A DNA stretch of 64,000 bases from Balanoglossus misakiensis (GCA_040954595.2 CM082580.2:734783-798782), one strand, 5' to 3'; counted from the first letter of the stretch, positions 4,433-55,280 are shown. The notes: generated by a model from the letters alone, not told the origin. Program-made: numbers and translations.

Positions 4433-4614
4433 AATAACGGTGAGAAATTGAAATTGAGGCAGAGAGAGCGAGCACTGCAGGACACGCTCCGAACCCTTGA
4501 AGTGGCCGTGAGTGATGGATTATGGGATTTTTGAGGCTCGTTTGAGGTTGAGGGCGCCCCTTTTCGAGTTGCTTAATTGGGTAACATTATGCCGTTGATC
4601 GCAATGTTACCTAC

Positions 4615-13600: not shown

Positions 13601-16600
13601 TTCAAAAATCGACGAAATTTTTAGATTTTGCAAAGTCGAAAATGTGTCATTTTTTGATGATTTTCACCCATGATTTTTATTCAAAAATGGACGAAATTTT
13701 GAGATTTTGCAAAGACGAAAATTTGTCATTTTTTGATGATTTTCAACCATGATTTTTTTTCAAAAATCGATGAAATGTTGAGATTTTGCAAAGTCGAAAA
13801 TTTGTCATTTTTTGATGATTTTCACCCATGATTTTTTTCAAAAATCGACGAAATTTTGAGATTTTGCAAAGTCGAAAATTTGTCATTTTTTGATGATTTT
13901 CACCCATGATTTTTTTCAAAAATTGACGAAATTTTGAGATTTTGCAAAGTCGAAAATTTGTCATTTTTTGATGATTTTCACCCATGATTTTTTTAAAAAA
14001 TCGACGAAATGTTGAGATTTTGCAAAGTCGAAAATTTGTCATTTTTTGATGATTTTCACCCATGTTTTTTTTTTAAATCGACGAACCTATGATTTTTTTC
14101 AAAATCGACGAAATTTTGAGATTTTGCAAAGTCGAAAATTTTCTCATTTTTTGATGATTTTCCCCCATGTTTTTTTTTTAAAATGGACGAAATTTTGAGA
14201 TTTTGCAAAGTCGAAAATTTGTCATTTTTTGATGATTTTCACCCATGATTTTTTTCAAAAATCGACGAAATGTTGAGATTTTGCAAAGTCGAAAAGTTGT
14301 CATTTTTTGATGATTTTCACCCATATTATTTTTCAAAAACCGACGAAATTTTGAGATTTAGCAAAGACGAAAATTTGTCATTTTTTGATGATTTTTACCC
14401 CTGATTTTTTCAAAAATTGACGAAATTTTGAGATTTTGCGAAGTCGAAAATTTGTCATTTTTTGATGATTTTCACCCATGATTTTTTTCAAAAATCGACG
14501 AAATTTTGAGATTTTGCAAAGTCGAAAATTTGTCATTTTTTGATGATTTTCACCCATGTTTTTTTTTAGAAATCGACGAACCTATGATTTTTTTCAAAAT
14601 CGACGAAATTTTGTGATTTTACAAAGTCGAAAATTTTGTCATTTTTTGATGATTTTCAACCATGATTTTTTTCAAAAATCGACGAAATTTTTAGATTTTG
14701 CAAAGTCGAAAATGTGTCATTTTTTGATGATTTTCACCCATGATTTTTATTCAAAAATGGACGAAATTTTGAGATTTTGCAAAGACGAAAATTTGTCATT
14801 TTTTGATGATTTACACCCATGATTTTTTTTCAAAAATCGACGAAATTTTGAGATTTTGCAAAGTCGAAAATTTGTCATTTTTTGATGATTTTCACCCATG
14901 TTTTTTTTTTAAATCGACGAACCTATGATTTTTTTCAAAATCGACGAAATTTTGAGATTTTGCAAAGTCGAAAATTTTCTCATTTTTTGATGATTTTCCC
15001 CCATGTTTTTTTTTTAAAATGGACGAAATTTTGAGATTTTGCAAAGTCGAAAATTTGTCATTTTTTGATGATTTTCACCCATGATTTTTTTCAAAAATCG
15101 ACGAAATGTTGAGATTTTGCAAAGTCGAAAATTTGTAATTTTTTGATGATTTTCACCCATGATTTTTTTTCAAAAATCGACGAAATTGTGAGATTTTGCA
15201 AAGTCGATAATTTTGTCATTTTTTGATGATTTTCAACCATATTATTTTTCAAAAACCGACGAAATTTTGAGATTTTGCAAAGACGAAAATTTGTCATTTT
15301 TTGATGATTTTCACCCATGATTTTTTCAAAAATTGACGAAATGTTGAGATTTTGCAAAGTCGAAAATTTGTAATTTTTTGATGATTTTCACCCATGATTT
15401 TTTTCAAAAATCGACGAAATTGTGAGATTTTGCAAAGTCGAAAATTTGTCATTTTTTGATGATTTTCACCCATGATTTTTTTCAAAAATCGACGAAATGT
15501 TGAGATTTTGCAAAGTCGAAAATTTGTCATTTTTTGATGATTTTCTCCCATGATTTTTTTCAAAAATCGACGAAATTGTGAGATTTTGCAAAGTCGAAAA
15601 TTTGTCATTTTTTGATGATTTTCACCCATGTTTTTTTTTTTAAATCGACGAACCTATGATTTTTTTCAAAATCGACGAAATTTTGAGATTTTGCAAAGTC
15701 GAAAATTTTCTCATTTTTTGATGATTTTCCCCCATGTTTTTTTTTTAAAATGGACGAAATTTTGAGATTTTGCAAAGTCGAAAATTTGTCATTTTTTGAT
15801 GATTTTCACCCATGATTTTTTTCAAAAATCGACGAAATGTTGAGATTTTGCAAAGTCGAAAATTTGTCATTTTTTGATGATTTTCACCCATATTATTTTT
15901 CAAAAACCGACGAAATTTTGAGATTTAGCAAAGACGAAAATTTGTCATTTTTTGATGATTTTTACCCCTGATTTTTTCAAAAATTGACGAAATTTTGAGA
16001 TTTTGCGAAGTCGAAAATTTGTCATTTTTTGATGATTTTCACCCACGATTTTTTTCAAAAATCGACGAAATTTTGAGATTTTGCAAAGTCGAAAATTTGT
16101 CATTTTTTGATGATTTTCACCCATGTTTTTTTTTAGAAATCGACGAACCTATGATTTTTTTCAAAATCGACGAAATTTTGTGATTTTACAAAGTCGAAAA
16201 TTTTGTCATTTTTTGATGATTTTCAACCATGATTTTTTTCAAAAATCGACGAAATTTTTAGATTTTGCAAAGTCGAAAATGTGTCATTTTTTGATGATTT
16301 TCACCCATGATTTTTATTCAAAAATGGACGAAATTTTGAGATTTTGCAAAGACGAAAATTTGTCATTTTTTGATGATTTACACCCATGATTTTTTTTTAA
16401 AAATCGACGAAATTTTGAGATTTTGCAAAGTCGAAAATTTGTCATTTTTTGATGATTTTCACCCATGATTTTTTTCAAAAATCGACGAAATTGTGAGATT
16501 TTGCAAAGTCGAAAATTTGTCATTTTTTGATGATTTTCACCCATGTTTTTTTTTTAAATCGACGAACCTATGATTTTTTTCAAAATCGACGAAATTTTGA

Positions 16601-19337
16601 GATTTTGCAAATTCGAAAATTTGTAATTTTTTGATGATTTTCACCCATGTTTTTTTTTCAAAAATCAACGAACCCATGATTTTTTTTCAAAAATCTACGA
16701 AATTTTGAGATTTTGCAAAGTCGAAAATTTGTCATTTTTTGATGATTTTCACCCATGATTTTTTTCAAAAATCGACAAAATTTTTAGATTTTGCAAAGTC
16801 GAAAATTTGTATTTTTTTGATGATTTTTACCCATGATTTTTTTTTTCAAAAATCGACGAAATTTTGAGATTTTGCAAAGACGAAAATTTGTAATTTTTTG
16901 ATGATTTTCACCCATGTTTTTTTTTCAAAAATCAACGAACCCATGATTTTTTTTCAAAAATCGACAATATTTTGAGATTTTGCAAAGTTGAACATTTGTC
17001 ATTTGTTGATGATTTTCACCCATGTTTTTTTTTTCAAAAATGGACGAACCCATGTTTTTTTTTTTCAAAAATCGACGAATTTTTGAAAATTTTGTTAAGT
17101 CGAAAATTTGTAATTTTTTTGATGATTTCCCCCCCCACGATTTTTTTTTTCAAAAATCGACGAAATTTTGAGATTTTGCAAAGTTGAACATTTGTCATTT
17201 GTTGATGATTTTCACCCATGTTTTTTTTTTCAAAAATGGACGAACCCATGTTTTTTTTTTAAAATCGACGAATTTTTCAAAATTTTGCAAAGTCGAAAAT
17301 TTGTCATTTTTTGATGATTTTCACCCATGATTTTTTTCAAAAATCGACGAAATTGTGAGATTTTGCAAAGTCGAAAATTTGTCATTTTTTGATGATTTTC
17401 ACCCATGTTTTTTTTTTAAATCGACGAACCTATGATTTTTTTCAAAATCGACGAAATTTTGAGATTTTGCAAATTCGAAAATTTGTAATTTTTTGATGAT
17501 TTTCACCCATGTTTTTTTTTCAAAAATCAACGAACCCATGATTTTTTTTCAAAAATCTACGAAATTTTGAGATTTTGCAAAGTCGAAAATTTGTCATTTT
17601 TTGATGATTTTCACCCATGATTTTTTCAAAAATCGACAAAATTTTTAGATTTTGCAAAGTCGAAAATTTGTATTTTTTTGATGATTTTTACCCAAGATTT
17701 TTTTTTTCAAAAATCGACGAAATTTTGAGATTTTGCAAAGACGAAAATTTGTAATTTTTTGATGATTTTCACCCATGTTTTTTTTTCAAAAATCAACGAA
17801 CCCATGATTTTTTTTCAAAAATCGACAATATTTTGAGATTTTGCAAAGTTGAACATTTGTCATTTGTTGATGATTTTCACCCATGTTTTTTTTTTCAAAA
17901 ATGGACGAACCCATGTTTTTTTTTTTCAAAAATCGACGAATTTTTGAAAATTTTGTTAAGTCGAAAATTTGTAATTTTTTTGATGATTTCCCCCCCCCCA
18001 CGATTTTTTTTTTCAAAAATCGACGAAATTTTGAGATTTTGCAAAGTTGAACATTTGTCATTTGTTGATGATTTTCACCCATGTTTTTTTTTTCAAAAAT
18101 GGACGAACCCATGTTTTTTTTTTAAAATCGACGAATTTTTCAAAATTTTGCAAAGTCGAAAATTTGTCATTTTTTTGATGATTTCCCCCCCCCACGATTT
18201 TTTTTTCAAAAATTGACGAAATTTTGAGATTTTGCAAAGTCGAAAATTTGTCATTTTTTGATGATTTTTACCCATGATTTTTTTTCAAAAATTGACGAAA
18301 TTTTAAGATTTTGCTGTCGAAAATCTGTCTTTTTTTGACGATTTTACCCATGATTTTTTTCAGAAATCGACGAAATTTTGAGATTTTGCAAAGTCGAAAC
18401 TTTGTCTTTTTTGATGATTTTCACTCATTATTTTTTTCAAAAATCGACGAAATTTTCAGTTTTTGCAAAGTCGAAAATTTGTCATTTTTTGAAGATTTTC
18501 ACCCATGTTTTTTTTCAAAAATCGACGAACCCATGATTTTTTTCAAAATCGACGAAATTTTGAGATTTTGCAAAGTCGAAAATTTGTCATTTGTTGATGA
18601 TTTTCATCAGCTATAACCCATTTTTTTTTCAAAAATCGACGAATTTTTGAAAATTTTGCAAAGTCGAAAATTTGTCATTTTTTGATGATTTTCACCCATG
18701 ATTTTTTTCAAAAATCGACGAAATTTTGAGATTTTGCAAAGTCGAACATTTTTCATTTATTGATGATTTTTACCCATGATTTTTTTTCAAAAATTGACGA
18801 AATTTTAAGATTGTGCAGTCGAAAATTTGTCATTTTTTGATGATTTTCACCCATTTTTTTTCAAAAATCGACGAAATTTTGAGTTTTTGCAAAGTCGAAA
18901 ATTTGTCATTTTTTGAAGATTTTCACCCATGTTTTTTTTTTAAATCGACGGACTTTTGAGATTTTGCAAAGTCGAAAATTTGTCATTTTTTGATGATTTT
19001 CACCCATGTTTTTTTTTCGACGAACCCATGTTTTTTTTTCCAAAATCGACGATATTTTGAGATTTTGCAAAGTCGAAAATTTGTCATTTTTTTATGATTT
19101 CCCCCCCCCCCCCACGATTTTTTTTTTCAAAAATCGACGAAAATCTCGAAGTTCTTGCAAAGTCGAAAATTTGTCATTTTTTGATGATTTTCACCCATGA
19201 TTTTTTTTAAAAATCGACGAACCCATACTTTTTTCAAAATCGACAAAATTTTGAGATTTTGCAGTCGAAAATTTGTCATTTTTCGATGATTTTCATCCAT
19301 GTTTTTTTTCAAAAATCGACGAAATTTTGAGATTTTG
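4615..19337 (+). repeat. 78-bp satellite array, orientation 1, with higher-order repeats
   Basis: Consensus about ATGATTTTTTTCAAAAATCGACGAAATTTTGAGATTTTGCAAAGTCGAAAATTTGTCATTTTTTGATGATTTTCACCC. The 26-aa periodicity of the spurious ORFs equals 78 bp. Some units carry an extra ~30-bp partial duplication (AAATCGACGAACCTATGATTTTTTTC). Confidence 0.98.
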
Positions 19338-20163
19338 CAAAATCTCAATATTTCGTCGATTTTGAAAAAAATCATGGGTTCTTGCAAAATCTCAAAATTT
19401 CGTCGATTTTGAAAAAAATCATGGGTTCGTTGAATTTTGAAAAAAAAAACATGGATGAAAATCATCAAAAAATGACAAATTTTCGACTTTGCAAAATCTC
19501 AAAATTTCGTCGAATTTGAAAAAAATCATGGGTTCTTGCAAAATCTCAAAATTTCGTCGATTTTGAAAACAATCATGGGTTCGTTGAATTGTGAAAAAAA
19601 ACATGGATGAAAATCATCAAAAAATGACAAATTTTCGACTTTGCAAAATCTCAAAATTTCGTCGATTTTGAAAAAAAATTATGGGTTCGTCGATTTTTGA
19701 AAAAAAAAAATGGGTGAAAATCATCAAAATGACCAATGTTCGACTTTGCAAATCTCAAAATTTCGTCGATTTTTGAAATAAAAAATCATGGGCTATAGCT
19801 CATGAAAATCATCAACAAATGTCAAATTTTCAACTTTGCGAAATCTCAAAATATCGTCGATTTTTGAAAAAAAAACATGGGTTCGTCGATTTTGAAAAAA
19901 AAATCATGGGCTATAGCTCATGAAAATCATCAACAAATGTCAAATTTTCAACTTTGCGAAATCTCAAAATTTCGTCGATTTTGAAAAAAATTATGGGTTC
20001 GTCGATTTTTGAAAAAAATCATGGGTGAAAATCATCAAAAAATGACAAATTTTCGACTGCAAAATCTCAAAATTTCGTCGATTTCGAAAAAAATCATGGG
20101 TTCGTCGATTTTTGAAAAAAAAAACATGGGTGAAAATCATCAAAAAATTACAAATTTTCGACT
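19338..20163 (-). repeat. 78-bp satellite, inverted orientation, more diverged
   Basis: Reverse-complement monomers (CATGGGTGAAAATCATCAAAAAATGACAAATTTTCGACTTTGCAAAATCTC) begin at the palindromic junction. Confidence 0.95.
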
Positions 20164-23100
20164 TAGTGTTGTATGATGTGTATTCCCGTAGGATTTTTGT
20201 GCTAAAATTGATTTTTTTGCTGTTTTGGCTTCTACGGGGACCCAACTACCCGAAAATGATGGGGTGCAATTTTAAGGGCCCCTCCATCATATTTTTCTGG
20301 GGGGGGGGGGTACTTCCGTTTTGTGGTATGATGTGTATTCCCGTAGGATTTTTCTGCTAAAATTGATTTTTTTTGCTGTTTGGCTTCAATGGGGACCCAA
20401 CTACCCAAAAATCATGGGGTGCAATTTTTAGGGCCCCTCCATCAATTTTTTTCGGGGGGTCTCTTCTGTTTTGGTCACTCGAGGATATTTGTTCACCTAT
20501 TTACTCTATCATCATGGGAATTTGGGCTACAATTAATTTGTTTTTGTTGTGTTTGCTTTGGAGGAGACCAACCTGGCCAAAAATAATCGGGTGCAAATTA
20601 TAGGGCCCCTCCATCATTTTTTATTTGGGGGGGGGGCACTTCCATTTTGGCCACTCCGAAGTTGTTTGTTGGCCTATTTACTCCCTTCTCATAGAATATT
20701 TTGCTAAAAATATTATTTTTCTTTGATGTTTTGGTTTCAATGGGGCTCCACCAGAACTAAAATGATGGGGTTCAAATTTTTGGAACCTTCCATCATGTCT
20801 TGGGGGGGGGGAGGGTAATCATTTCTGTTTTGGCCACCCTGAAGATACTTATTCACCTATTTACTATACGGTTAGTATTGTCGTGGTATTTCTTGCAATT
20901 TGGTTTGCTCCTTTGGCTTGAATGCAGACTGACTGCCGAAAAGTGATGGTGTGCAAAATGTTGGACCCCTTTACCACATTTTTTGGTGGGGGGGGGGGGT
21001 TCTCTATATTTGTTTTCGCCAACCCGTTGTAACAGTAGTTTTTTTTTATCTTAGATTTTTTCGTTTATTCTAAATTTAGTATACTAAGGTAAATTAAAAC
21101 TCCTTTATATATAATAAAGTACATAATGTGTATTTTAGTTTATTTTCCGAGCTACAGTCCCATCTCATAAAATGGACCCTTGAGGCACCCTCCCTACCAC
21201 GGACGGTGCAATAAACAACCCAAGAAGCATAACGATTCTTTTCTGATATCTTGGTATTATCAATCATCATTTTCACGAAACCCAGTTCTGTTTGATCTAC
21301 TCATCGCCAGTGTCGTTATCTTCAAGAACATTTCCCCCTGGTTTTCAGTCTCCACCATAGCATTTGCAGAGGGGAGTACATAGTAAATCATTCTTTGAGC
21401 AACTGCAACGTCCCCTACAACCTGCTTTGCAGCCACATTTGATAAGCTCTAGTACTGCCTTTGGTGCAGGGAGAGCAAGACATTTTACTGGATAAAACAC
21501 GCCATTCTCCGATTTCCACCCATTCTTTTTGATTGGGGGAAGTTCAGGACAATTTGTTGCGTATGATTTATCTCTCATTGTGATGAAGGGGTGGCACCCT
21601 TTTCACAGATCACGCAAATCTTATTTTTATCTACATATTAATTCTGTAGTTTATTGCAAAATGTCCTAATAGCTATCGAACTGGAACGTAAAACGCTGCT
21701 TACGGTGCTAAGAAAATAGCCAATATGTATTTAGTAATAAAACTGAGATGTAGTTCACAGACTTGTTTTATTTTCAGTAGTATTGAGCTACAAAATGAGC
21801 CAAATTTGATATTGTTAATGTTTACCAAAACAAGTTTTAGAAGTAAGACATAGTTCAAGGGCTTTTTACAGCACTATTTTGCTATTGGCATGAAAATTTT
21901 GAAAATACTACTTTAAAATAGACAATACTTCAACTGATATGGCTTTATTTACGACAGTATTTAACTTTGAAATGAGTTCAACTGAATATCGTTTTAATAC
22001 CCCAAAAAACAAGTGTTGATTAAAACGTACTTCAGAGTTTATGCACAGACTTATATCGATGAGAATTTTAGTACAATGGTAAATATCTCAGACATTGATT
22101 GTGCTACGAAAGAATAAACAACTCTTAACGAAAAAGTTACCAGAATCATATGCATATGATTCTGGTAACTCACGGCCCCTCGGGTGTAATAAACGGCTGC
22201 TATGGCCCTCATGGCCAGGCAATAGGTGTTCACTATTTGGTATAGCCTAGTATACTATATTTTTGTAAACCATAGAAAACATGAGTGTGGTGATGAGTTG
22301 GGTGGCGGTCCAAGGTGAGGGGAGGTATATTATGCTAAGTCCAAACCAGAGAGATATTTGTGGTTGATTTGTTAGTGTCAAAATTCAACTAAGTATATTT
22401 ATAAAAATAAGATAGCGCTGTAGTATATATGACAACTGATACAAATGTAGGTAACTGATATGTTTACCCATAAACCGTCTAATATTTAAGATTCCCAATA
22501 TGTGGAGAGGCCCTAAAATTTGACCTCATTTTTGAGCAGTTAGGTCCCCATAGAAGTTAAAAAAAAAGAAATTGGAAGAAATCCTTTACAAATACACATG
22601 TCACACTATGAACAAATATCTCCAGGGCTGCTAAAACTAAAGTGACCCCCCCCCCTGCAAGAAAATGTGATGGAGGGGTCCAACAAATTGATTTCCATCA
22701 TTTTGGGGATGTTTATTCATCATTGAAACCAAAACAGCAAACAAAACAAATAACTATTAGCAAAAACTCCTACGAGAATACACGGTATAGGTGAACAAAT
22801 ACCGTTAAGATTGTCGGAATGTAAGTGCCCCCCCCCCCACAAATGTAATAGAGGGGCCCTAAAATTTGCATGTGATCTTTTGTGACCAGGTGTCAAAACA
22901 GCAAAAAAAAAATTCTTTAGCAGAAAATTCTACGAAAATGGAGTAGATAGGTGAATAAATATCTTCGGGGAGGCCAAAACAGGAGTGACGACCCCCCCCC
23001 CCCCCGAAAAAATATGATGGAGGGGCCCTAAAAATTGCACCCCATCATTTTCGGGTAGTTGGGTCCCCATTGAAGCCAAAACAGCAAAAAAATCAATTTT

Positions 23101-23310
23101 AGCACAAAAATCCTACGGGAATACACATCATACCACAAAACGGAAGTACCCCCCCCCCCCCCCGAGAAAAATATGATGGAGGGGCCCTTAAAATTGCACC
23201 CCATCATTTTCGGGTAGTTGGGTCCCAATAGAAGCCAAAACAGCAAAAAAATCAATTTTAGCACAACAATCCTACGGGAGCTGTTTTTCATGACATACCA
23301 TACCGCACTA
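20164..23310 (-). mobile_element. Non-autonomous Academ(X)-like DNA transposon
   Basis: Ends TAGTG...CACTA; 3-bp TSD ACT (20161-20163 and 23311-23313); removing it restores the satellite monomer TTTTCGACT|GCAAAATCTC. About 0.8-kb inverted arms of tandem subrepeats and an internal Cys-rich transposase tail. Confidence 0.82.
21345..21578 (-). pseudogene. C-terminal Cys8/CXC zinc-finger fragment of an AcademX-type transposase
   Basis: LPPIKKNGW...PAPKAVLELIKCGCKAGCRGRCSCSKNDLLCTPLCKC; no upstream DDE or XPG coding sequence is visible. Confidence 0.75.
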
Positions 23311-25135
23311 ACTGCAAAATCTCAAAATTTGGTCGATTTTTGAAAAAAATCATGGGTTCGTTGATTTTTTAAAAAAACATGGGTGAATTTTCGACTTTGC
23401 AAAATCTCAAAATTTCGTCGATTTGGAAAAAAAATCATGGGTTCGTTGATTTTTAAAAAAAAACATGGGTGAAAATCATCAAAAAATGAAAAATTTTCGA
23501 CTTTGCAAAATCTCAAAATTTCGTCGATTTTGAAAAAAAATCACGGGTTCGTCGATTTTTTAAAAAAACATGAGTGAAAACCATCAAAAAATGACAAATT
23601 TAAGACTGCAAAATCTTAAAATTTCGTCGACTTTTGAAAAAAAGCATGGGTTCGTTGATTTTTTAAAAAAACATGGGTGAAAATCATCAAAAATTTACAA
23701 ATTTTCGACTGCAAAATCTCAAAATTTCGTCGATTTTTGAAAAAAAAATCATGGGTGAAAATCCTCAAAAAAACGACAAATTTTTGATTTTGCAAAATTT
23801 CAAAATTTCGTCGATTTTGAAAAAAAATCATGGGTTCGTTGATTTTTTAAAAAAACATGGGTGAAAATCATCAAAAAATGAAAAATTTTCGACTTTGCAA
23901 AATCTCAAAATTTCGTCGATTTTGAAAAAAATTATGGGTTCGTCGATTTTTGAAAAAAAATCATGGGTGAAAATCATCAAAAAATGACAAATTTTCGATT
24001 TTGCAAAATCTCAAAAGTTCGTCGATTTTGAAAAAAAATCATGGGTTCGTCGATTGTTTAAAAAAAACATGGGTGAAAATCAACAAAATGAAAAATTTTC
24101 GACTGCAAAATCTCAAAATTTCGTCGATTTTTGAAAAAAAAATCATAGGCTATAGCTCATGAAAATCATCAACAAATGTCAAATTTTCAACTTTGCGAAA
24201 TCTCAAAATATCGTCGATTTTTGAAAAAAAAAACATGGGTGAAAATCATCAAAAAATGACAAATTTTCGACTTTGCAAAATCTCAAAATTTCGTCGATTT
24301 TGAAAAAAAATATGGGTTCGTCGATTTTTGAAAAAAATCATGGGTGAAAATCATCAAAAAATGACAAATTTTCGACTGCAAATCTCAAAATTTCGTCGAT
24401 TTTTGAAAAAAAATCATGGGTGAAAATCATCAAAAAAATGACAAATTTTTGATTTTGCAAAATCTCAAAAATCACGGGTTCGTCGATTTTGAAAAAAATC
24501 ACGGGTTCGTCGATTTTTTAAAAAAACATGGGTGAAAACCATCAAAAAATGACAAATTTTCGACTGCAAAATCTCAAAATTTCGTCGATTTTTGAAAAAA
24601 AACATGCGTTCGTCGATTTCTGAAAAAAAAAATTTTTGATTTTGCAAAATCTCAAAAATCACGGGTTCGTCGATTTTGAAAAAAATCACGGGTTCGTCGA
24701 TTTTTTAAAAAAAACATGGGTGAAAACCATCAAAAAATGACAAATTTTCGACTGCAAAATCTCAAAATTTCGTCGATTTTTGAAAAAAAACATGCGTTCG
24801 TCGATTTCTGAAAAAAAAAACATGGGTGAAAATCATCAAAAAATGAAACATTTTAGACTGCAAAATCTCAAAATTTCGTCGATTTTGAAAAAAATTATGG
24901 GTTCGTCGATTTTTAAAAAAAAATCATGGGTGAAAATCATAAAAAAATGACAAATTTTCGAGTTTGCAAAATCTCAAAATTTCGTAGATTTTTGAAAAAA
25001 ATCATGGGTGAAAATCATCAAAAAATGAAAAATTTTCGACTTTGCATAATCTCAAAATTTCGTCGATTTTGAAAAAAATCATTGGTTCGTCGATTTTTGA
25101 AAAAAAAAACATCGGTGAAAATCACCAAAAAAAAA
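23311..25135 (-). repeat. 78-bp satellite, inverted orientation, diverged terminal block
   Basis: Continues the 19338-20163 block after the Academ-like insertion; many truncated monomers and GGGTTCGTCGAT sub-units. Confidence 0.95.
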
Positions 25136-31811: not shown

Positions 31812-33823
31812 TAGTTCACCATGACCAACCACATGACCCAGGAAATCGATCTGCTCATAACCCACATAACACTTAGTTGGTCTCGCTGTTAACTTTGCCT
31901 TTCGTAGTCTGCTCATCAAATCTGTAATTGTCTTGATATGTTCTTCCCATGATGCAGTGTGGATCAGTATGTGATCGATATAGTTGTCTACGTTCTTCAT
32001 ATCTCTTAACAATCTTCTCATAATTCTGCTAAAAGTCGCAGCACTATTTACAAGTCCGAAAGGCATTTTGATAAATTGGTATAGCCCATCATGCGTGATA
32101 AATGCCGTCAATTGTTTAGAATTATCAGTCAACGGGACTTGCCAATATTCTTTGCTGAGATCTACTTTAGTGAAATAGTGATCCTTGGATAACTTAGCAA
32201 AAAGCAAAAAGCTCACTCAGGTCTGGTGTAGGCTCTGCATCAAACACTGTTATGCGATTGAGCTTTCTCATGTCAACACAACAACGATTGGACCCATCAG
32301 ATTTCTTCACCATTACCAGTGGAACAGCATATGGACTCTCTGAAGGTTCAGCTACTCCCATCTTAATCATCGTTTTGACTTCATCTTTCACTGCTTCACG
32401 GAGTGCATGAGGGATGGGGTATGGCCTACTGCATACTGGTGTTGGATCCATCAACTTGATGTCATGGAAACCCAGGTTGGTGTTACCACGAATATCAGTT
32501 AACATATCTTTGTAATTGATCAGCAACCTCCTCACCACTTGCTTCTGTATGTCTGACAAGTTGTCACATACATTCACATCTGCAGCAAATTCTTTCTGCT
32601 TGAATGCAGGAACCCGCAGTAAGTCATCGTTTACTTTAACCCCTGTGTTCTCTTGTACTTCTGAAGATTCATAACTCTGCTCATCTATCACAGATACACA
32701 CACAATCTCAAGAAGTCCAGCTGATACTTCATCTAGCTGATCAGTTCTTCGATAGTACCTCTTCAACAGGTTGGCATGGAATGTTTTCACCCTATGACCA
32801 AAGTCAATCTTGTAATCCATATTGCTCGCTTTCTCCACCACTGGAAAAGGACCCTTCCAGTGCATAAGTAGTTTATTATGGTCAGTAGGTAGTAGCAATA
32901 ACACCTCGTCACCTTTGTTGAACTTCCTCCATTTGGCCTTTCTATTGTAGTAGGACTTGTATTTGCCTTGTGATATCTTCAGTTCTTGTCTTGCTAAATC
33001 GCATGCCTTCTTTAATTTCTTTTGAAGATCAAGGATGTATTGATAAGTCGTTTTGGTTTCTGGTTCACTGATCTCTCCAGTCCATAGTTCTTTCAAGATA
33101 GCCATTGGACCACGCACACTCCTCCCATAAAGTAACTCAAACGGAGAGAATCCTGTGCTCGATTGAGGCGTTTCTCTGTAGGCAAATAGTAAAGCATTCA
33201 GATAACGATCCCAATATGTTGGACGTTCCTCACACATCTTCCTGAGCATGAGTTTCAATGTACCATTGAACCGTTCCACTAGACCATTGAATGCTGGGTG
33301 GTATGGGGTGGTAGTCATCTGCTTTATAGACAAAAGCCGGCTGACCTCACGCATCACATCTGATGTAAATTGAGTTCCTTGATCTGTCAGAATTTCACGT
33401 GGACACCCCACTCTTGAGTAGATGTCCAGGAGCGCCTCTGCAACAGTCTTGGTATCAATGTTAGTCAATGCAACAGCCTCCGGATAGCGTGTTGCATAAT
33501 CAACAACAGTAAGTATGTACCTATTCTTGCGTTCAGTGCATGGATGAATAGGGCCAACCAGGTCTACTGCAATACGTAGGAAAGGGATATCTATTAGTGG
33601 CATACTTCCAAGTGGTACCTTGGTCACCCGTCCCTTTGGTTGTGTCCGTTGACATGAATCACAGGACTGACAGTAACGGGAAACATCTGATGTTAGCCCA
33701 GGCCAAACGAAGTTGCTGAGGATCTTGTCTGTGGTCTTGTGAGTTCCGTGGTGACCACCCAGCACTGATTCATGGGCTAGTCTCATCACCTGGTTACGAT
33801 ACACTCTGGGAACCACCACCTGT
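31812..33823 (-). pseudogene. Integrase followed by reverse transcriptase (frameshifted, truncated)
   Basis: H2C2 (AHESVLGGH...CQSCDSC), rve core (AVDLVGP, LTDQGTQF, NGLVERFN), WKGPF. RT: VDMRKLN, then after a frameshift near 32200 DLSKEYWQV, MPFGLVN, YIDH (mutated YxDD). Confidence 0.9.
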
Positions 33824-34672
33824 CACTACAGCTTGAACGACGCCACCTATGGGCAGTATTTCCGTGGCAGCCTATGAAGCTCATGAATATTTAATTAGAC
33901 ACAGTAATGGCGTTCGCGATCGAACACAGCTGTCGATGCACAGCATAATTCGGTGAGTAATATTGCTTTATTCCAAGTTTTGTTTAGTAAAATTAGCAAG
34001 ATGTCAGAGACAATATGAAATAAAGTTGCGATTCTGCTGTGTTATTTATGTGTATCAGCCAAATAACTTGAACATTTTGATCACCCGCTGACAGTCCCTG
34101 GCCGTTGCTATAGCAGAAGCCGTCCTAAGCAACCATAAACAAACACTAAAAATTACAACGATTCAGCTTCACAGAATTGTTTTTTTCAATTTGAAAACCA
34201 TACGAATTTAGTCTTTTATACGTAAACATAGGATTCCATGTTTAAAATGCTGCTACAAGCAATATGACGAAATCATACCAAGCGAAAATATACGACCCTG
34301 TGTGTTCCTTGGCAGCAGCACGGGTTACATTGATTGTAATGGCGGCGCTTCGAATTTTCGGCGACATGGTGATATTGTTCATAGAATTGACAGAAAATAA
34401 GACCGTAACTGAAAAATCAGAAACCAATAGTTTGTGCTAAAATATATTCTTGATATAATTCGCTGGAAATTCGAGGGTGAAAACGAAATAAGAAAAAAAT
34501 GAATGGGCGAGATTGTTATGGTAAGGTTACCCACATTCTTTCTATGTCACCTTTGACCTCAATTTCTGGAGGAAGTATAATGAGCAGGTGTTTTGTTTTT
34601 GCTTCCCTCGGATAGATAATTATTGTAAAGATATTTCTCTTGTTCACCCTTTTCAGGTATAGATTTAGAGCC

Positions 34673-37600
34673 ATGTGGGGCAAACTATTCAACAGGAGTA
34701 GCGCACTTCTTAAAAGTTTGTCTATTGTTATGCCGAATAGAAAAGGGAAAAGTTACTTCAACATAGGCCAGTGGGCAAAGGACCAAAAGATAGCGAGACA
34801 GGTAGCTGAAGAGAAGTGTTTACAACAACTATATCAGGAGAAATTGAAGACTAGATCTTTGTCTGGGAGCGTGGCCAACAACCTATTGGTAGTTAGAACA
34901 AAGAGAGGACAGACTAAACACAGGTTTAACTTAGGAGAGTGGTGTAGACAGAGAAAGAGAAAGAGAGATGAGGAAGAAAGCATAATTCAGGATAAGTTGA
35001 ATAAGTTGAGTGCAGCTAGGAGACTAGTAAAAAGATCCTCAACCCAGCTAGCTAGACTAGAGAAGAAGAACAGTAAGATTTGTGAGATCTTAGCTACAAA
35101 GAATAATAAGAGAAAGGTAAGCTAGATCAGATAAATAGACTTAGTCATAATTTTAAAAATCTCAGATTTGTATAAATCCTCTTCAAATTTTAGCCCAAAT
35201 TCGCTTTTTGAACTTCATGTCACATGATCCTGTGTAAACAATGATAACAAAATGGGTTCAGCTTTGATGCAAAACATCTAGGTTTTCCAACAAACTATGT
35301 ATATTTTTTAGGATTTTTATTGCAGAAGTTGTCAGAAAAATACAGGCTACACGTGTGTATTTCTTATCAAGGACATTTAAATTAATGATTAACTTGTAAG
35401 AAGATTTTATTTTATATATAATGATTATATTCTAATTAGTATATATTTATCACACACTTAATCTTTCAGATTCCTGTTGATGTTGTTAATGTGAAACGCT
35501 CTAAATGGGTCCACAAGAACACTGAAGTATGTGCAGATAATAGTGAATCTTTGAAGCTGTCGCGACGTCAACAGTATGAACGTAGGTGTGAAACCTTATC
35601 AGCAGCCATAAATATTCATGTAGCAACTACAGATGTAAGCCCAGCCAAAGGTATAAATAAACCGAATGTACTACATCCACCAAAAGCAGCACTTGATGGT
35701 TTGTGGTATACTCTTGTTAATTCTGCCACTCCTGACCAAATGAAAACATTCTTCAGAACCTCTCCCCAAATCAGTAAAAAAGTAATGCCATCAGTATTTG
35801 ATAAATACATCAGTAAATTTGAGAAAAGTGAGAACAATTTGGTGAGGAGTGTCAGAACTATGTATGAGGGCGGAGTACTATCCAAACGAAAATATAACTG
35901 TCTGAGGCAGAGTGAACTTCAGATGTTCTCCAACTTGAAACATCCTAGGAAAGCAGTAGAAATTCATTCTGGCTGTAGAATACCAAGACTGCTCCCATAC
36001 ACAAAAGTTGTACAGTATGTAAGTAACCTTGACATTGGAAATCTTGAGCCAATTATATCATCTGAAGGCAAACAAGTCGGCTTAAAAAGAAACCCTGAGG
36101 AGTTGCTTATTAAGATTGCCAGTTTATATTTAAATATGGGGGAAACACAGCCTGATATTCTTAACTGGTTCGGTAAACAGGAGGGCTCATTTCAAATCAG
36201 TATAGGTGCTGACGGGGCTCCGTTTGGCAAACATGGACAGGCCACTGCATGGCTAGTTAGTTTCTTGAATGTGACCCACCGTGTTGCTAGCCCAGACCAC
36301 AATTTTCTCCTATTAGGGGCAAACATAAAAGAGGATGACCCCATAATGATTGAATTTGCAATTGCATTGTCAAAAGACCTTGAGTGTATTGAGAAACGTA
36401 AATATAAAGTTGGCAGTCTTGATGTAACTTTTCAGGTGTCACTTTTACCCTTTGATCAGAAGGGATTGGCCAGTGTGTCTGGAGAACTAAGCAATGCAGC
36501 AAAGTATTTCAGCTCATTTGCTAACGTTCCAAAAATGATATTGATTGTATTGGAGCAGAAATTGGCCCAGGTAAGAAGTGGGATGAATGGAAATATCAGA
36601 AAAGAATTAAAGATGCAGAAGCTGTTGAAAAGTTGAAGTCAACTAAGAAAATTAAAACTGGAAAGCCCAAAACAGTGCGACCCAAAATCACACAATTTAT
36701 AGCCAGTCTGAGGTCAAGACAGGAATTTGTACCACCGTTGGGTAGATTTATTGATTGTGCCAAGGCTGAGCCATTGCATTTAAAGAACAATGCATGGCAA
36801 TACTACTTCCAACGATTACTGATTGACGCAGTTGCCCACACTTCGGAAAAGGGTCGTGAAAATGGAGTTAAAATTGAGAATCTACCTAACGAGTCATATC
36901 TGTACAAATTCCTGTCTGCCCTAAAATATCAAGTAAAAGCTGGAAAGTTGTATAATAAGATTGTAAAATACTTCAATGAAAATAGTGTCAAGTCAAATGC
37001 CAACATTAATGTGGTTTATCGCTTCACTGGTGAGGAGTCTCGCAAACTTGCTTGGCATTTCATAGGATTGGTATTAGCATTGAGAAGCGATACAGACAGA
37101 CCAAAGCGTCGGGCTCAATTAGCTCTCTACACATATACTGGTATCTTGCTTAGAGATATCACTTTGTTATTCTCACGATTCAACATAAATGAGGGAGATT
37201 TGCTTGTACTTAGGCATAAGTGTCGGTGGTACTTTAATCTACATTCCCTGTTTCTGAATGTCAATAATACTGTGTGGCACATTGGTTATGTAGTCCCAAA
37301 ACACACCACTAGTATCTATAAGCAATTCAGTCTGGGATTAGGCCTAAACACAATGGAAGGCAGAGAGGCAAAGCATCTACGCCTGCTAGAATTCAGTGAA
37401 AATTCTACACCTCAAAATAGGTGGGCCCTCATATTTCGACACGAATATGTGATGCTTTTTTGGCTGAGGAACAAAAGTCCAAAAGCTGACAACTATAGAA
37501 ATGCAAATGTAGGTCAATTTGAGCTTAAAGAAAAAGAAAAATACATTCCCAGTCGATATTATGAGAATGCAGGCTACTGTATGTGTGGCAATTTAAAAAA

Positions 37601-37710
37601 ATGAAACAATGACTGCCTGTGAAATATGTGTTGACCCAATTATGGATGACATAAAAAAAGCAGCTGTCACTGGTAAAATATCAAATAAACTCAAGAAACT
37701 TATGCTGTGA
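34673..37710 (+). pseudogene. Spliced RAG1/Transib/Chapaev-related DDE transposase with two single-base frameshifts
   Basis: Exon 34673-35116 (AAG|GTAAG) joins in frame to 35470 (TTTCAG|ATT). Motifs GADG, PFDQK, EPLH, RFTGEE, GLNTMEGREAKH parallel RAG1 CDG, GYDEK, DALH and GAWASEGNESGNK. Frameshifts near 36528 and 37598; restored C-terminus CMCG...CEIC, stop at 37708-37710. Confidence 0.75.
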
Positions 37711-38562
37711 ACAATGATTGAATTTGAAACAGTGGATTGTGTCACTGTGTGCTACTTTAGAATTAAAGGATAACTATAGTATTAATTACATTACAGAATT
37801 ATAAAGACTCATCTGTAGTTGAGAGCTGCATTTAATAAAAATGGAGATCACAAATCACATGAATTCACACTTTTTGAACTGGAGATGATATGTTTCTTAT
37901 GGGATTTTGTATATGTGTGCATGTATGGGGACAGGGAAATTGAAACTTATCTTACCACTATTAAGTATTGTGAATAAACCCTTAATCGTATAGTGATTGC
38001 AGTGCTTTGCAAAATTAAAATGTATGACATACATAAGCTTGATAGAAAAGTTTTACATTTTTCTTGAGGAGTTGTTTATTCTGCACCTGCACGAAATTTT
38101 AATGAATTTGTGAAAAAATAAAGAATTAAGTCTCATCAAATTCTTGATATTTATAAATTTTGTCATGGAATTAATTGTAAATATTAATTAAATTTAGACC
38201 AGAAATCCTGGTTAACTGTTAGATGAGCAGTTTTGATTGACTTATCAATGTTGATTGTAGGTAACATACATTTTTTTCTGAAACTAATGAAAAATCTATG
38301 TTACAATAATGATGGAAAAAAAGAATTTTACAGTTTAGGAAATTTTGTAAACATTATCTGTTCATTTGTATTGAATGTAGATAAATAAAGACAAGTGATG
38401 AATTTTTGAGTCTTCTAATTTTCCTTTTTTTATTTGAATATATGTCAATTGTGAGAGGACTGTCTTGACAGACTGATACATCTACACTGAACAACATGTG
38501 CCACAGATCAGGAAAAAAATGTTCCTCAGATGGGTTGAATCAGTGTGAAAAATCAATAGGGT

Positions 38563-39213
38563 TCAGTTCTCTGGATGTAATGGAATTCCATGTTTGTTCC
38601 AGGCACCAAAGCTGAATCTAACAGCAACAGTCTCCCTGTTGATAAAATATTTCACAACACAGGGCTTCTCAGGTGTGAATATAACAGCTACCCTCTTTCC
38701 ACGGACTTTCTTCTCTAGGATATTCTCTGTATGCTGACCGATAGCGCCCTCGTAGCAATAACCTTTCCGTATCACATACAATAGCTTCAAGGAACTTTTG
38801 AAGGTCAAGGTTATGATAGCCCTGGAGGTCTTCTCGTCGATACCAAAACCGGTCTGAGTAGCAAACTGATGAAAAACATCAAATACTTCCCTCGGCATTT
38901 GTCGTGTAAAGCTGCTTTGCCATGGTGACCTTAACGACGGGGATGTTGACAGCCGAGCGTAGAAGGTCTTCTGCCAGTAGGTCATATCACGCTGAAACAT
39001 GGGAAATACGGCGACGTCACGCCAACGAATCTTGTCCTTTGACAGCTTGTCGTTTCGAAATATGGCCCTTGTTGTCACATCCTCAAGTTCATCAAAGAGT
39101 GGGTGTATATACAGATTGTCCGACACGCATTTTTTACGTTTAAGCACAGATTTTGCCTCTCGCAATTTGCGTTTTATAACTTTCTCGGCATCGATCAACA
39201 CGGGCGCCGCCAT
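38563..39213 (-). CDS. Hypothetical 216-aa basic protein, second gene of the transposon
   Basis: Intact ORF starting 85 bp inside the right end, strong start context CCAAGATGGCGGCG, convergent with the transposase across an AT-rich 3' region. No recognisable domain and no kelch repeats. Confidence 0.72.
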   Translation of the reverse strand: MAAPVLIDAEKVIKRKLREAKSVLKRKKCVSDNLYIHPLFDELEDVTTRAIFRNDKLSKDKIRWRDVAVFPMFQRDMTYWQKTFYARLSTSPSLRSPWQSSFTRQMPREVFDVFHQFATQTGFGIDEKTSRAIITLTFKSSLKLLYVIRKGYCYEGAIGQHTENILEKKVRGKRVAVIFTPEKPCVVKYFINRETVAVRFSFGAWNKHGIPLHPEN

Positions 39214-39297
39214 CTTGGCAATGCGTTGCTATGGTGAACATGGGAGCTCGCGCTTCGCGGAATACTGCCCAACATAGCTCTAGTATTTCCCGCAGTG

Positions 39298-41110
39298 TGT
39301 AACAGCTTTTCACCAAATTGGACCATTGGCGAATTGAACTCTCTGTACAGGATCCCATCTTTCATGATGAACTTCAACCTACCTCCATTCCTAGTCACTT
39401 TCTCGTCACCCAAAATTGCCTTCTCACGTAGTTTGTCAAGAGTGGAGTCTTCTTCTTGAGCTTGTTGAAGCTTCCCTGGCATCACCACTTCACCAACAGC
39501 TTTAGGTACTTTAAGCTCTCTAATTGGTTTTTGGTTGGCTATCTTCTGGGCTCTGGTCTCCACAGCATTTGCTAAACCTGGTACCTGTCCAACAGTTGTA
39601 CACAGTCTACATGTCGGCAATGGTTCCTGCCATGTAGTATCAGGATTCGAAGGGTCAGATACACCATCAATGTTGCCCAGTATTAAATCATACACATGGT
39701 TCATCATGCACAGTGCAGTAACATCACCAACAAAGTAAGGGGTATCAACTTTTATAGAGGCTACAGGTACTCTTCTAATAGTCCCATCTATCAGAACACA
39801 CGTCCTGTACTCACCAGTCAGCTGATTACTTGACACCAGACTTCTTCGAACTACCACGCTACTACACCCACTATCACGCAAAACGCTAACCAGCTTACCA
39901 TCGAGCAATCCCTTCATTACCGGCATCTTCTTCACTCCATGGGCACTACAAGCAGCACTCATCACTGGGAGCTTATGACCACATGGTAACACGAACTCCT
40001 TATTCAGTGTTGCATCTGTTTTATCTATTTCCATTGCTACCACCATACATGCATAACCAGTGTCTAGTCCCCTGGGCTGTTGACGGTTGCCCCAATGTGT
40101 ACATTCTTGTTTAGGTGGATAGTTTCTATCTTCTTCAGTTAACAATACCGCCGTCTTATGCATCTTTGGCTTACTTCTACAATCTTTGGCCATATGACCA
40201 CCTTTACCACATACGAAGCACGTACCTTTAAAAACATGGGAACCATTGGTTTTGTTATTAAACTTATTTACTTGATTTGGATATACAGCAGGCTTGGTAT
40301 TTGCTGTCGGCTGGCTCCTTGGATTATTCTTGGCATTACTTGGCAGTTTCCACCACCCTCGGGCATCTAAGTATTTTGAGGCAGTAGATACCATCTCTTG
40401 GACATTCTCTGGCCGTCGCTCTCTAATGAACATTGCCATGTCTCTGGAACATACTCCAATAAACTGCTCTCGAAGTAACAGATCTGTAAGCCCATTGTAC
40501 GTCTTTGGAGTACCAGCCAGTTCTACCCATCTGCCCAAATAGTCACCAATACGGTCCATAAACTTTTGAGCACTTTCATCATAATGTGGCATACACGAAC
40601 GGAACTTGTCATGAAAACTCTCCTCACTTAACTGGTAAGCCCTCAATAACTCTGGTTTCAATTCATCATAATTATTTGCAGACGCTGCAGGCATTTGGTT
40701 GTATGTGGATACATCCTTACCTTGTAACAATATGCACTGAGATTCACCCCCAGTCATCTTTTTCCCACTTCTGAGCAGTGGCGTAGCGCTGAAAACGTTG
40801 AAGGTACGCATCCATATCATCAACATCCTCACGAAAACCCTGTAGTCTCGGAGCACGCGCTTTGGCCAAATTATTTTCAGTAACCTGCTGTTCTGTATTT
40901 TCCCCTTTCAATTTTAATTCTTGTAAGTGAATTTGCATTTTCAGTATCTCTCTCTCATGTTCCTCGCGCCGCCTATTATCTTCTCTCTGCTCCTCTCTCT
41001 CAGTAGCCCTAAGATCCCTCTGTCTAATTTGTTCCTCTCTAACATAATCTTTTAAAGCAGTCCCTTCCAACCCAAATTTTCTCCCTATCTTAGATATTCT
41101 TTCTGCATAT
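39298..41110 (-). pseudogene. Gmr1-type gag and protease, frameshifted near 40745
   Basis: DMDAYLQRFQRYA...W, LLREQF, CCHC knuckle CFVCGKGGHMAKDC, protease LRDSGC; in frame with the integrase once the insertion is removed. Confidence 0.88.
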
Positions 41111-51078: not shown

Positions 51079-52240
51079 TTATACTGGCAAGTTATCCAGG
51101 TTGTTATGTGTAGACAAATCATGGATATGGGGGTTACAGGATGGAACACCATTTTGAACCCTTTGAGGTTGTTCATATGTCAAATGTTTGGAGTTCCATT
51201 CAGTGCCCTGGAAGGAAAATTCTGGATATTCCTCAACATATTTCTTTACATGTCCAGTGGACCTTCTTTTTACACCTTTGGAGTTTTCCAATACTAACGC
51301 ACCTCCATCTTTCTGGATGACTTTGTATGGTTCTGTCTCGAAATTGGGAGTGAGTTTGTTTTGCCTAAATGCTTGCTGGAGCAAAACAGTATCACCTTCC
51401 CTGATATCTGAGGAAGTGGCATGTCTCCTGTTGTCGGCATAGAACTTTTGTTTCATTTTCATTCTGTTGTTTCTTTCTCTCATTTTGATTTGCCAATCAG
51501 ACTCATTGATTGTTTGGGATGGAATTCTCAGTCTAGGAATTTTGTCCCTAAACTCTCTTCCCATCAGAGCCATAGCAGGAGATATGCCTGTCACAGTATG
51601 GGGTGTATTTCTATATTCAAATAGAAAATGTGTCAAATCTTTGTACCAACTTTTCTTTTGCAATTTAGCAATTCGTACAGACTTCAAAATTATTTCATTC
51701 AGCCTCTCAACACTTCCATTGCTCTGAGGCCAGTATGGAATGGAATATTCATGATCAATACCTAAGTAATCAAGGAAACCTTCAAACTCGGCTGAGGTAA
51801 AAGGTGGACCATTGTCTGATTTGACACAGTAAGGCAACCCATGTGTAAGAAACATAGCTTCCATGGCTTTTATGACATGGGCAGCATCTGTTTTCTTTAA
51901 CAAAACTACTTCAGGCCATCTAGAGTATAAATCAGTTACCACTAGTAATTTCTCACCATCACATACATCCAAAAGATCAACTGCTAAATCGAACCATGGT
52001 CCTTCAGGTAACTGTGTGGGTAATAATGGCTCTGGGTTTGGCCTGGCACTGACCAATTGACATGGATGACAGGATCGTATCAGTTTTTCCACATCCCTGT
52101 CCATTCCTGGCCACCAAACTCTGTCACGTAAACGAGCCTTTGTCCTCACAATTCCCTGATGACCCTGGTGTGCAATTTTCAAGATTTTTCTTTGCAAAAC
52201 TTGAGGAACAACCAATCTGTTACCACGCATATCAATCTGC
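51079..52240 (-). CDS. Integrase portion of pol
   Basis: AHQGHQG...CHPC, AVDLL, SDNGPPF, SNGSVERLN; joined to RNase H by a frameshift near 52240. Confidence 0.9.
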
Positions 52241-55197: not shown

Positions 55198-55280
55198 GCA
55201 CTCAAATCACGGCTAAAAAGTCACCAAATCTCGTAAAGGTTGCTTGCGTATGTTCTTCGATAGTTAATTTAGACAACTAA

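Follow-up and report, generated by a model that had tools for sequence, protein, structure and literature searches.

Within a 64-kb stretch of the Balanoglossus misakiensis genome (GCA_040954595.2 CM082580.2:734783-798782; 64,000 nucleotides, here called the window), we identified a DNA transposon of 5,474 bp (33824-39297) whose ends are built in two parts, a shared terminal motif (CACTRC) and a shared inner box, separated by spacers of equal length and unlike sequence. In our interpretation, CACTRC is probably the cleavage site and the box probably docks the transposase complex of the element itself. The element carries two convergent genes between its ends, a transposase on the plus strand and a second open reading frame (ORF2) of an unnamed family on the minus strand. 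The target-site duplication TGT is found on both sides, and the insertion interrupts a single minus-strand pol frame of Gypsy type in the integrase region of the retroelement, leaving pieces at 32194-33822 and 39298-40907. By coordinate arithmetic, the two pol pieces have codon phases that fit a simple insertion with a 3-bp duplication, and the split frame together with the TGT flanks therefore fixes the element boundaries independently of the end motifs. The interval is a complete mobile element, probably a DNA transposon of the cut-and-paste type.

The first-pass annotation of the window had proposed that only CACTRC and an inner box beginning at exactly position 27 are shared between the two ends, that the spacers differ and that the right end holds an extra inverted copy of the box. 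The end letters it quoted are present, at 33824-33864 for the left end and, as the reverse complement, at 39258-39297 for the right end, and the proposed sharing was borne out by an ungapped comparison of the left end with the reverse-complemented right end, with positions counted inward from the tip. The ends match at positions 1-4 and 6 (CACTRC), share only 2 of 11 spacer letters at positions 16-26, and are identical again over 11 nt at positions 27-37 (TGGGCAGTATT); this box grows to 14/15 nt if the left end is allowed one more T. When the right end was shuffled 200,000 times, 2 shuffles attained an in-register run of 11 beyond position 6, and TGGGCAGTATT occurs at just these two sites in the window at <=1 mismatch. 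The exact 9-mer core of the box, AGTATTTCC, has only two sites in the element, both on the plus strand: one at 33855 and one at 39282, the latter inside the right spacer and opposite in orientation to the right box; a search at <=1 mismatch added only scattered near-matches in coding regions. The extra inverted box is thus real in this copy, although it is missing from the right end of a sister copy, and it may serve to tell the two ends apart in this subfamily. Folding of the right end as DNA gave no hairpin through the extra core better than those of shuffled sequences (z -1.5 and -0.7), and searches of the window and the element found no CACTA-like arrays of the box.

The sister copy was found among contigs from two sequencing runs containing the stretch. 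One diverged contig of the same genome is ~81% alike over 39159-39272, continues with 25 unlike letters ending in GTAGTG and then passes into unrelated sequence. The box again starts at position 27, 26 nt from the tip; relative to the right end in the window, the first nine letters agree at 8 of 9 positions and the other 17 spacer letters at 7 of 17 (hand count). Diverged-copy contigs from the same runs, the sister contig among them for the first interval, skip 38613-39158 (546 nt, most of ORF2) and 35724-36423 (700 nt, transposase region), and these are likely to be deletion derivatives or other subfamilies.

More distant relatives were collected by scanning metagenome contigs with the family alignment, which gave 148 confirmed matches, of which 80 loci with 31-49% identity were kept. 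A search for CAC...GTG pairs in the 26 loci with an ORF2 homologue yielded candidate ends in 17 and none in 9, and the element boundaries in these relatives were checked against between-copy similarity. The set compared comprises eight elements, one per family, namely the window element and loci L001, L012, L025, L027, L059, L065 and L011. Excluded were the end pairs of L005, L038 and L066, which were weak or lay inside ORF2; the pair of L053 and the top pairs of L021, L022, L024 and L059, which were parts of longer internal inverted repeats; loci L007, L015, L021, L022 and L024, whose families were already represented; and the "inner" pair of L008 and L011, an internal end-like copy.

Across these eight elements the same two-peaked profile was obtained. 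The left end equals the right at each of positions 1-11 in 7-8 of the 8 elements, at positions 16-28 in just 2-6, and at positions 29, 30, 31, 32 and 33 in 8, 7, 8, 8 and 8, respectively, after which agreement drops to chance. Per element, positions 29-33 match 5/5 in seven and 4/5 in one, and sliding one end by 1-3 nt lowers this to <=3/5, so that the second peak exists solely in register. All 16 ends begin with CAC; an A/T tract follows at positions 23-27 (G+C in 5, 2, 1, 0 and 5 of 16 ends) and then a G/C stretch at positions 28-32 (11, 16, 15, 12 and 12 of 16), with hand counts giving A in 11 and T in 4 ends at position 25, C in 12 at position 22 and G in 14 at position 29. The spacers are unlike (2-4 of 11 matches) in the window element, L001, L012, L027 and L011, and in the four relatives among these the unlike left and right spacers are of equal length. 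On the aligned ends, the layout of a tip, a spacer of fixed length and free sequence, and an inner box is a genuine trait of the family.

The inner 5-mer at positions 29-33 exists in six different versions among the eight elements. Left ends compared with the right ends of other elements match at a mean of 2.4 of 5 letters, and a common 5-mer was seen only in the related pair L025/L027. Such co-variation of left and right within each element is what would be expected of recognition by the element's own protein. Duplications of 3 bp were found in 6 of the 12 listed end pairs, the window included (window TGT, L015 TAG, L025 ATT, L027 AGC, L065 ATT, and TTA at the inner pair of L008); pairs lacking one may be chimeric assemblies.

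Two further structures were observed at or near the ends of the relatives. In one cnidarian-type family a second end-like sequence lies ~845 nt inside the left end (L011:1513 and L008:4552, with the outer left end at L011:668), matches the right end at 33 of 40 positions and has a matching TTA flank in L008; the element of this family may be nested or composite and possess two left ends. In three families, internal inverted repeats of 100-155 nt with 90-96% likeness lie some hundreds of nt inward of each end (L021:3705-3857/7945-8100; L006:796-899 versus L007:9307-9411; L012:1170-1267/6653-6750), and no repeat of this size was listed for the window element.

The transposase was studied through an AlphaFold2 model of P0001, a 679-aa uncharacterized Ptychodera flava protein (58-74% identity to the window frames, 74% as the modelled homologue), built on 26 relatives (predicted local distance difference test, pLDDT, 85.6; predicted template-modelling score 0.83). 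The first 40+ rows of a Foldseek search with this model were all RAG1 core chains (best E 9e-12), followed by HzTransib (1.3e-7) and amphioxus BbRAGL (6e-6). With VIA-align, mouse RAG1 460-1007 gave a Z of 22.1 over 470 residues with a root-mean-square deviation of 4.0, ahead of HzTransib (19.7), BbRAGL (19.4), the P element transposase (12.3) and Hermes (6.5); the RAG1, Transib and BbRAGL matches span 420-470 residues. No CACTA-type transposase structure is among the solved-structure matches of either search. A RAG1/Transib fold is thus predicted for the enzyme.

Conserved in the family are GADGAPFG at a strand end, D-x-K just past the fourth strand, (E/D)PLHxxNN (the "LH" motif), P-x-H and GREAKH on a helix, and in the family alignment the candidate D, D, LH and E motifs show little or no variation; topology and invariance together suggest a D-D-E triad with codons at 36211, 36454 and 37365. 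The C(2)C motif is absent in all 26 aligned members, where the stretch from D262 to LH reads YFSSFANV and holds no conserved Cys pair; of the H(3-4)H motif, ahead of GREAKH, only the second His (that of P-x-H) is general, the first being replaced by Y, V or N in part of the members. C-terminal to the core lies a C-x-C-G...C-x-x-C tail. Ahead of the core, full-length relatives have a basic patch (G-R/K-R-R-R ... E-T ... I-H-G-G) ~25 residues before the first modelled helix, at roughly the position of the nonamer-binding domain of RAG1, and some alignments carry model residues 1-49 onto RAG1 421-460 with a higher deviation. No N-terminal zinc or RING region was found, and the N-termini of eight full-length relatives contain no Cys/His cluster or Cys-rich Chapa domain.

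Based on these features we propose that a transposase dimer would seat each CAC tip in an active site of RNase-H type formed by the predicted D-D-E residues, and that a second DNA-binding surface, for which the candidates are the basic patch and helices N-terminal of the core or else the ORF2 protein, would grip the A/T tract and the box ~2.5 helical turns inward. Such a two-point grip would set the spacing and leave the spacer sequence free to drift. By analogy with RAG, Transib and same-fold enzymes, cleavage would proceed by a nick and a hairpin on the flanking DNA, and integration with a 3-bp stagger is suggested by the duplications seen and by the chemistry of the relatives. The ends probably act as promoters for the two convergent genes as well. 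The analogy with heptamer-spacer-nonamer signals drawn by the first-pass annotation can accordingly be kept in part: the layout is family-wide and the predicted RAG1/Transib fold lets the comparison rest on a likely common enzyme architecture rather than on looks, although the spacers here are equal and show no 12/23-type asymmetry.

Several observations weigh against this interpretation. L025, L059 and L065, three of the eight elements, have continuous repeats of 33-36 nt (9-10 of 11 spacer matches), and a free spacer is therefore not universal; the suggestion that two-part ends stand in place of continuous terminal inverted repeats holds for the window element and four relatives but not for these three, and aligning the ends of related families, the check proposed at the time, put tip and box in register in 8/8 with a continuous spacer in 3/8. 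Furthermore, the near-identical L012 and L015 (99%) have right spacers whose lengths are 8 nt apart (L012:7289-7313 versus L015:6925-6941), so that the inner box is at position 28 in one and at position 20 in the other. Either this counts against a strictly kept length, or one of the copies is dead or misassembled; the two contigs share the left flank and not the right, and one may be chimeric. The eight elements are mutually related and were picked from 17 candidate loci, and the window element's own family contributes a single sister end of which just 30 letters are visible. The window transposase contains two 1-nt frame shifts, near 36526 (TT/TTT) and 37597 (A7); a minority sequencing-run contig has one more T at 36526. 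Finally, the family profile gave only chance-level rows against PDB sequences, the likeness to RAG1 being one of fold alone, and in the Atlas structure search RAG1 comes out at much the same distance as Transposase_21 (CACTA TnpD; TM 0.61-0.62) and Plavaka clusters (TM 0.59-0.63 overall). Given this parity, the fold points to the whole clade and not to RAG1 in particular, and on the model we read the enzyme as a member of the broad CACTA/Mirage/Chapaev/Transib clade with no special RAG1 kinship.

It could be argued that the ends represent an ordinary CACTA/En-Spm arrangement, the box being a subterminal repeat bound by the ORF2 product in the role of TnpA and the transposase seeing only the CACTA tip. 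The 3-bp duplication, the literal CACTA at the left tip, the presence of two proteins, the conservation of ORF2 under apparent purifying selection and the double occurrence of the box core in opposite orientations at the right end would all agree with this, as En/Spm elements have multiple subterminal repeats in both orientations. We nevertheless consider it unlikely, as each end has one or two boxes and no arrays (one box on the left; one box plus one inverted core on the right), the register of box to tip is strict in 8/8 elements, ORF2 has no recognizable DNA-binding fold and the transposase lacks a Pfam Transposase_21 match. Still less probable is that the box serves mainly as a promoter or host-factor site for the inward genes, the ends being alike for the sake of expression and not transposition. 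Start regions do lie at 84/85 nt behind both ends, the ORF2 ATG is 85-122 nt from the tip in 9/9 elements, and in ProtoRAG the inner TR5 is also a YY1 site and the terminal inverted repeats act as promoters (PMC7481187), the TR5 9-mer itself being present at window 39207-39215. This YY1-type motif, however, is ~85 nt in and outside the box, the box stands in a register with the cleavage tip that a promoter element would not need, and the occurrence of six different 5-mers in eight elements, left equal to right within each, argues against a host factor, which would require one constant motif.

The three continuous repeats raise a further alternative, in which there is no functional partition and the box is the remnant of a continuous repeat of ~35 nt with a drifted middle. 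In the window element, however, the box is retained at 11/11 positions beside a spacer at 2/11, as rarely matched by shuffles as stated above; the trough-and-peak profile recurs at constant positions in all five elements with unlike spacers; the right end of the sister copy shows yet another spacer sequence at unchanged length; and the perfect duplication and long open frames speak for little general decay. We find this account highly improbable, and docking of the transposase complex at the box in register with a cleaved CAC tip remains the explanation that we favor.

Features of the transposon in the window (strand relative to the window; positions counted from its first letter)
Feature	Position	Strand	Evidence or remark
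Left target-site duplication TGT	33821..33823	.	Same letters after right end; split pol phases fit 3 bp
Left terminal motif CACTAC, likely cleavage site	33824..33829	+	CAC starts all 16 compared ends
Left spacer, 20 nt, unlike right spacer	33830..33849	+	2/11 matches at positions 16-26
Left inner box TGGGCAGTATTTCCG, from position 27	33850..33864	+	End comparison, window search
ATGGCG, mirror of ORF2 start motif	33907..33912	+	84 nt from left tip; GTGAGT donor near 33953
N-terminal coding exon, predicted	34657..35116	+	ATG 34673; joins 35470 in phase via GT-AG
Main transposase exon, predicted RAG1/Transib-fold core and C-terminal 4-Cys tail	35470..37704	+	tblastn of P0001
Asp of GADGAPFG, predicted first catalytic carboxylate	36211..36213	+	Invariant; end of model strand 173-183
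Asp of LPFDQK, predicted second catalytic carboxylate	36454..36456	+	Invariant D and K; just past strand 250-260
Glu of GREAKH, predicted third catalytic carboxylate	37365..37367	+	GREAKH invariant; on helix 562-575
ORF2, convergent second gene, 216 aa, unnamed family	38563..39213	-	Starts 85 nt from right tip
GCCATCTTG over ORF2 start codon	39207..39215	+	Identical to ProtoRAG 9-bp YY1-type TR5 (PMC7481187)
Right inner box TGGGCAGTATTCCG (minus strand), from position 27	39258..39271	-	End comparison, window search
Right spacer, 20 nt	39272..39291	-	End comparison
Extra exact box core AGTATTTCC inside right spacer, inverted versus right box	39282..39290	+	Exact search
Right terminal motif CACTGC (minus strand)	39292..39297	-	End comparison
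Right target-site duplication TGT	39298..39300	.	Flank letters; compared with relatives' duplications

The transposase gene is predicted to consist of two coding exons, the first following an acceptor (TTTTCAG) that ends at 34656 and ending in a donor (AAG/GTAAGC) at 35116/35117. The N-terminal exon encodes the motif (K/R)xxFN(I/L)G(Q/E)W, repeated twice, and gave a weak match to Pfam HA (E 4e-4, below cut-off). In the main exon, P0001 matches overlapping plus-strand frames at 35671-36534, 36459-37598 and 37597-37704 (tblastn). The transposase has 76 database relatives, the named matches including Ptychodera, Dendronephthya, Desmophyllum and Xenia, and Cnidaria were the commonest taxon in the Atlas structure search with the transposase model. 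A search of the range above 1190 aa returned no relatives. The transposase pieces, P0001 and the relatives matched no Pfam family; RAG1 or transposase Pfam models were matched by 0 of 23 members at E<=10 and by 0 of 7 at E<=1, and Transposase_21 by none of 30 proteins scanned.

For ORF2, an exhaustive search of representative sequences gave 75 relatives at E<=1e-3 and 11 at <=1e-10, mostly of 200-245 aa. A convergent homologue was detected downstream of the transposase in 26 of the 80 loci (tblastn), the flank being too short in many of the others. The ratio of nonsynonymous to synonymous substitution rates (dN/dS) was 0.18 for one pair over 170 codons, eight further pairs being saturated at silent sites, which suggests purifying selection. 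The ORF2 model (pLDDT 90.6) consists of three long helices and a mixed alpha/beta domain. Against Pfam, ORF2 and its relatives gave no meaningful family and no kelch or PHD match; the best Foldseek row had an E of 0.02, and a whole-model VIA wide search returned helical-hairpin matches to residues 1-62 only (Z <=7.6), with no recognizable DNA-binding fold in either search. Since the model matches no solved fold, it does not look like RAG2. An Atlas features search pointed to Argonaute N/L1/PAZ clusters (0.92, 133 of 256 features in common, low recognition), which we take as a lead only, and a complex prediction with the cognate transposase and ORF2 of L001 scored 0.00 and gave no verdict.

The starts of the two genes lie close behind the ends. 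The six-letter start motif of ORF2 is found 85-122 nt from the right tip in 9/9 elements, compared with 0.30 per kb across the loci, and the right-end starts of the relatives are of the AAAATGGCGGC type over the same range. At the left end, the mirrored ATGGCG and the donor that follows it are likely to form a short non-coding first exon. From these inward start regions, 84/85 nt from the tips, it appears likely that both ends double as promoters for the two convergent genes, in which GCCATCTTG may have a regulatory role.

The CACTA/EnSpm-Mirage-Chapaev-Transib (CMCT) clade of Kojima is characterized by 5'-CA...TG-3' termini and duplications of 2-5 bp (PMC12730594). The present elements agree with this in having CAC...GTG at 16/16 ends and 3-bp duplications, and at fold level in a DDE transposase of the RAG1/Transib/CACTA structural type; they depart from it in the zinc motif, of which C(2)C is gone in 26/26 members and the first His is partial, the LH motif being present. 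For the recombination signal sequence (RSS), Transib and ProtoRAG it is established that the ends are in two parts and depend on the length of the spacer (PMC1131882, PMC8289069), Transib ends being formed by a heptamer, a 23-bp spacer and a nonamer (PMC1131882) and those of ProtoRAG by TR1, a TRsp of 27/31 bp and TR5 (PMC8289069). Similar to Transib, RAG-like elements (RAGL) and RAG1 are the predicted architecture, from the dimerization/DNA-binding to the C-terminal domain (Z 19-22), and, in form only, the CAC tip followed at a constant distance by a conserved inner element. End sequences differ from the RSS/Transib consensus save for CAC and the A/T tract, and the box starts from position 27 at both ends, unlike the 12/23 of RSS and the 27/31 of ProtoRAG. 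The ends of L059 and L065, with a CAC-heptamer, 13-14 nt and a C-A5-type tract, bear a resemblance to the 12-type recombination signal printed in PMC1131882 that is suggestive only.

The elements also share with RAGL the two convergent genes between the ends; with the ProtoRAG terminal inverted repeats, starts close to the ends and a YY1-type 9-mer (PMC7481187); and with invertebrate RAG1L, a Cys-rich C-terminal tail in the place where RAG1L carries its CCGHC zinc knuckle, which clamps the TR2 part of the ends (PMC10629977). Unlike Transib and RAGL, they show no sequence-level match to RAG1 or Transib models, and their duplications, in the window element and five relatives, are of 3 bp and not 5 bp, although the Nozomi preprint describes 3-bp and TA duplications in Transib relatives. 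Further differences from the RAG1, Transib and RAGL systems are the missing C(2)C, the first His of H(3-4)H, found in some members only, and the lack of a zinc or RING region at the N-terminus. Whereas a 6-bladed kelch domain makes up the core of RAG2, the convergent partner here (~210 aa) is made of three long helices and an alpha/beta domain, and the elements, unlike RAGL, have no RAG2-like kelch gene.

Resemblances to EnSpm/CACTA comprise the 3-bp duplication, CACTA/CACTG tips and a second protein besides the transposase, as well as a short terminal repeat together with an inner motif that one end carries in both orientations and the proximity of Transposase_21 clusters in the structure search, as near as RAG1. 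Dissimilar are the lack of a Transposase_21 match, of subterminal arrays and of C(2)C, and the tips of the relatives, which read CACGC and not CACTA. The second En/Spm protein is an alternative product of one transcript, whereas the second gene here runs convergently from a start that is within ~100 nt of the tip on the right. Chapaev and Chapaev3 are approached in the animal hosts, CAC...GTG tips, 3-bp duplications and LH motif (PMC4079192, PMC3014272). Chapaev3, however, inserts with TWA duplications between A and T, and its Anolis elements are 1.8-1.9 kb long with one ORF (PMC4079192, PMC3014272); the duplications here (TGT, TAG, ATT, AGC, ATT and TTA) fit the TWA rule in 1 of 6 cases, the elements measure 4-7 kb with two genes, the eight N-termini contain no Chapa domain, and neither C(2)C nor H(4)H is retained.

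These elements are a variant within the CACTA/Mirage/Chapaev/Transib clade and possibly an unnamed lineage; no description or name was found in the literature searched, with Repbase and Repbase Reports outside the scope of the search. The difference lies in the combination of a sequence-orphan enzyme of predicted RAG1 fold and without C(2)C, equal spacers, 3-bp duplications that do not keep to TWA, no Chapa domain and a convergent partner matching no solved fold. Judging from the matches, the hosts appear to include a hemichordate-like genome and cnidarian-type contigs. More tentatively, and with doubts of our own, it can be speculated that this is an ancient RAG1-fold lineage of hemichordates and cnidarian-type hosts that kept recombination-signal-type ends (CAC tip, spacer of ~13-20 nt, A/T tract and element-specific G/C box at 29-33) and a RAGL-like layout of two convergent genes between promoter-bearing ends, with a 3-bp stagger, a new-fold partner and no structural zinc site. 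In that case, the logic of heptamer, spacer and nonamer and the layout with two subunits would predate the Transib/RAG branch and extend beyond it, or, alternatively, both would have arisen twice on one enzyme scaffold. The origin of the V(D)J signals has been argued from very few transposon lineages, namely Transib and RAG-like elements, and a further lineage on the same predicted scaffold, whose inner element co-varies between left and right, could serve as an independent system for asking which signal features a RAG1-type architecture dictates (tip recognition, spacing and A/T-tract bending) and what a non-RAG2 partner contributes. Intact two-gene copies of the family are present in public contigs. 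The analysis also suggests a likely role for two nameless protein families, with their 76 (transposase) and 75 (ORF2) relatives, and the CAC tip, the 3-bp duplication and the in-register box at 29-33 may be used as a diagnostic for repeat libraries.

No second copy of the transposon was found within the window. The interrupted retroelement reads, on the minus strand, gag (SCAN-like, CCHC), protease-like and integrase (H2C2, rve) regions followed by the start of a reverse transcriptase, of which the gag-like, CCHC and protease-like parts occupy 39298-40907 and the integrase H2C2 and rve parts 32194-33822. Its domain order is Copia-like and its element type Gypsy; Gmr1-like elements of deuterostomes are Gypsy-type with a Copia-like domain order. 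Elsewhere in the window, ~15 kb of A/T-rich satellite (4638-19323) is made of a 78-bp unit with higher-order periods of 156/184 bp, and is followed at 19311-25133 by the same unit arrayed in inverted orientation; a piece of ~3 kb between the arrays is bounded by inverted units of 155-159 bp (20167-20459 and 22992-23279). More long open reading frames are located on the minus strand at 861-4519 (958+273 aa) and, in overlapping frames, at 51079-55206 (413+508+546 aa).

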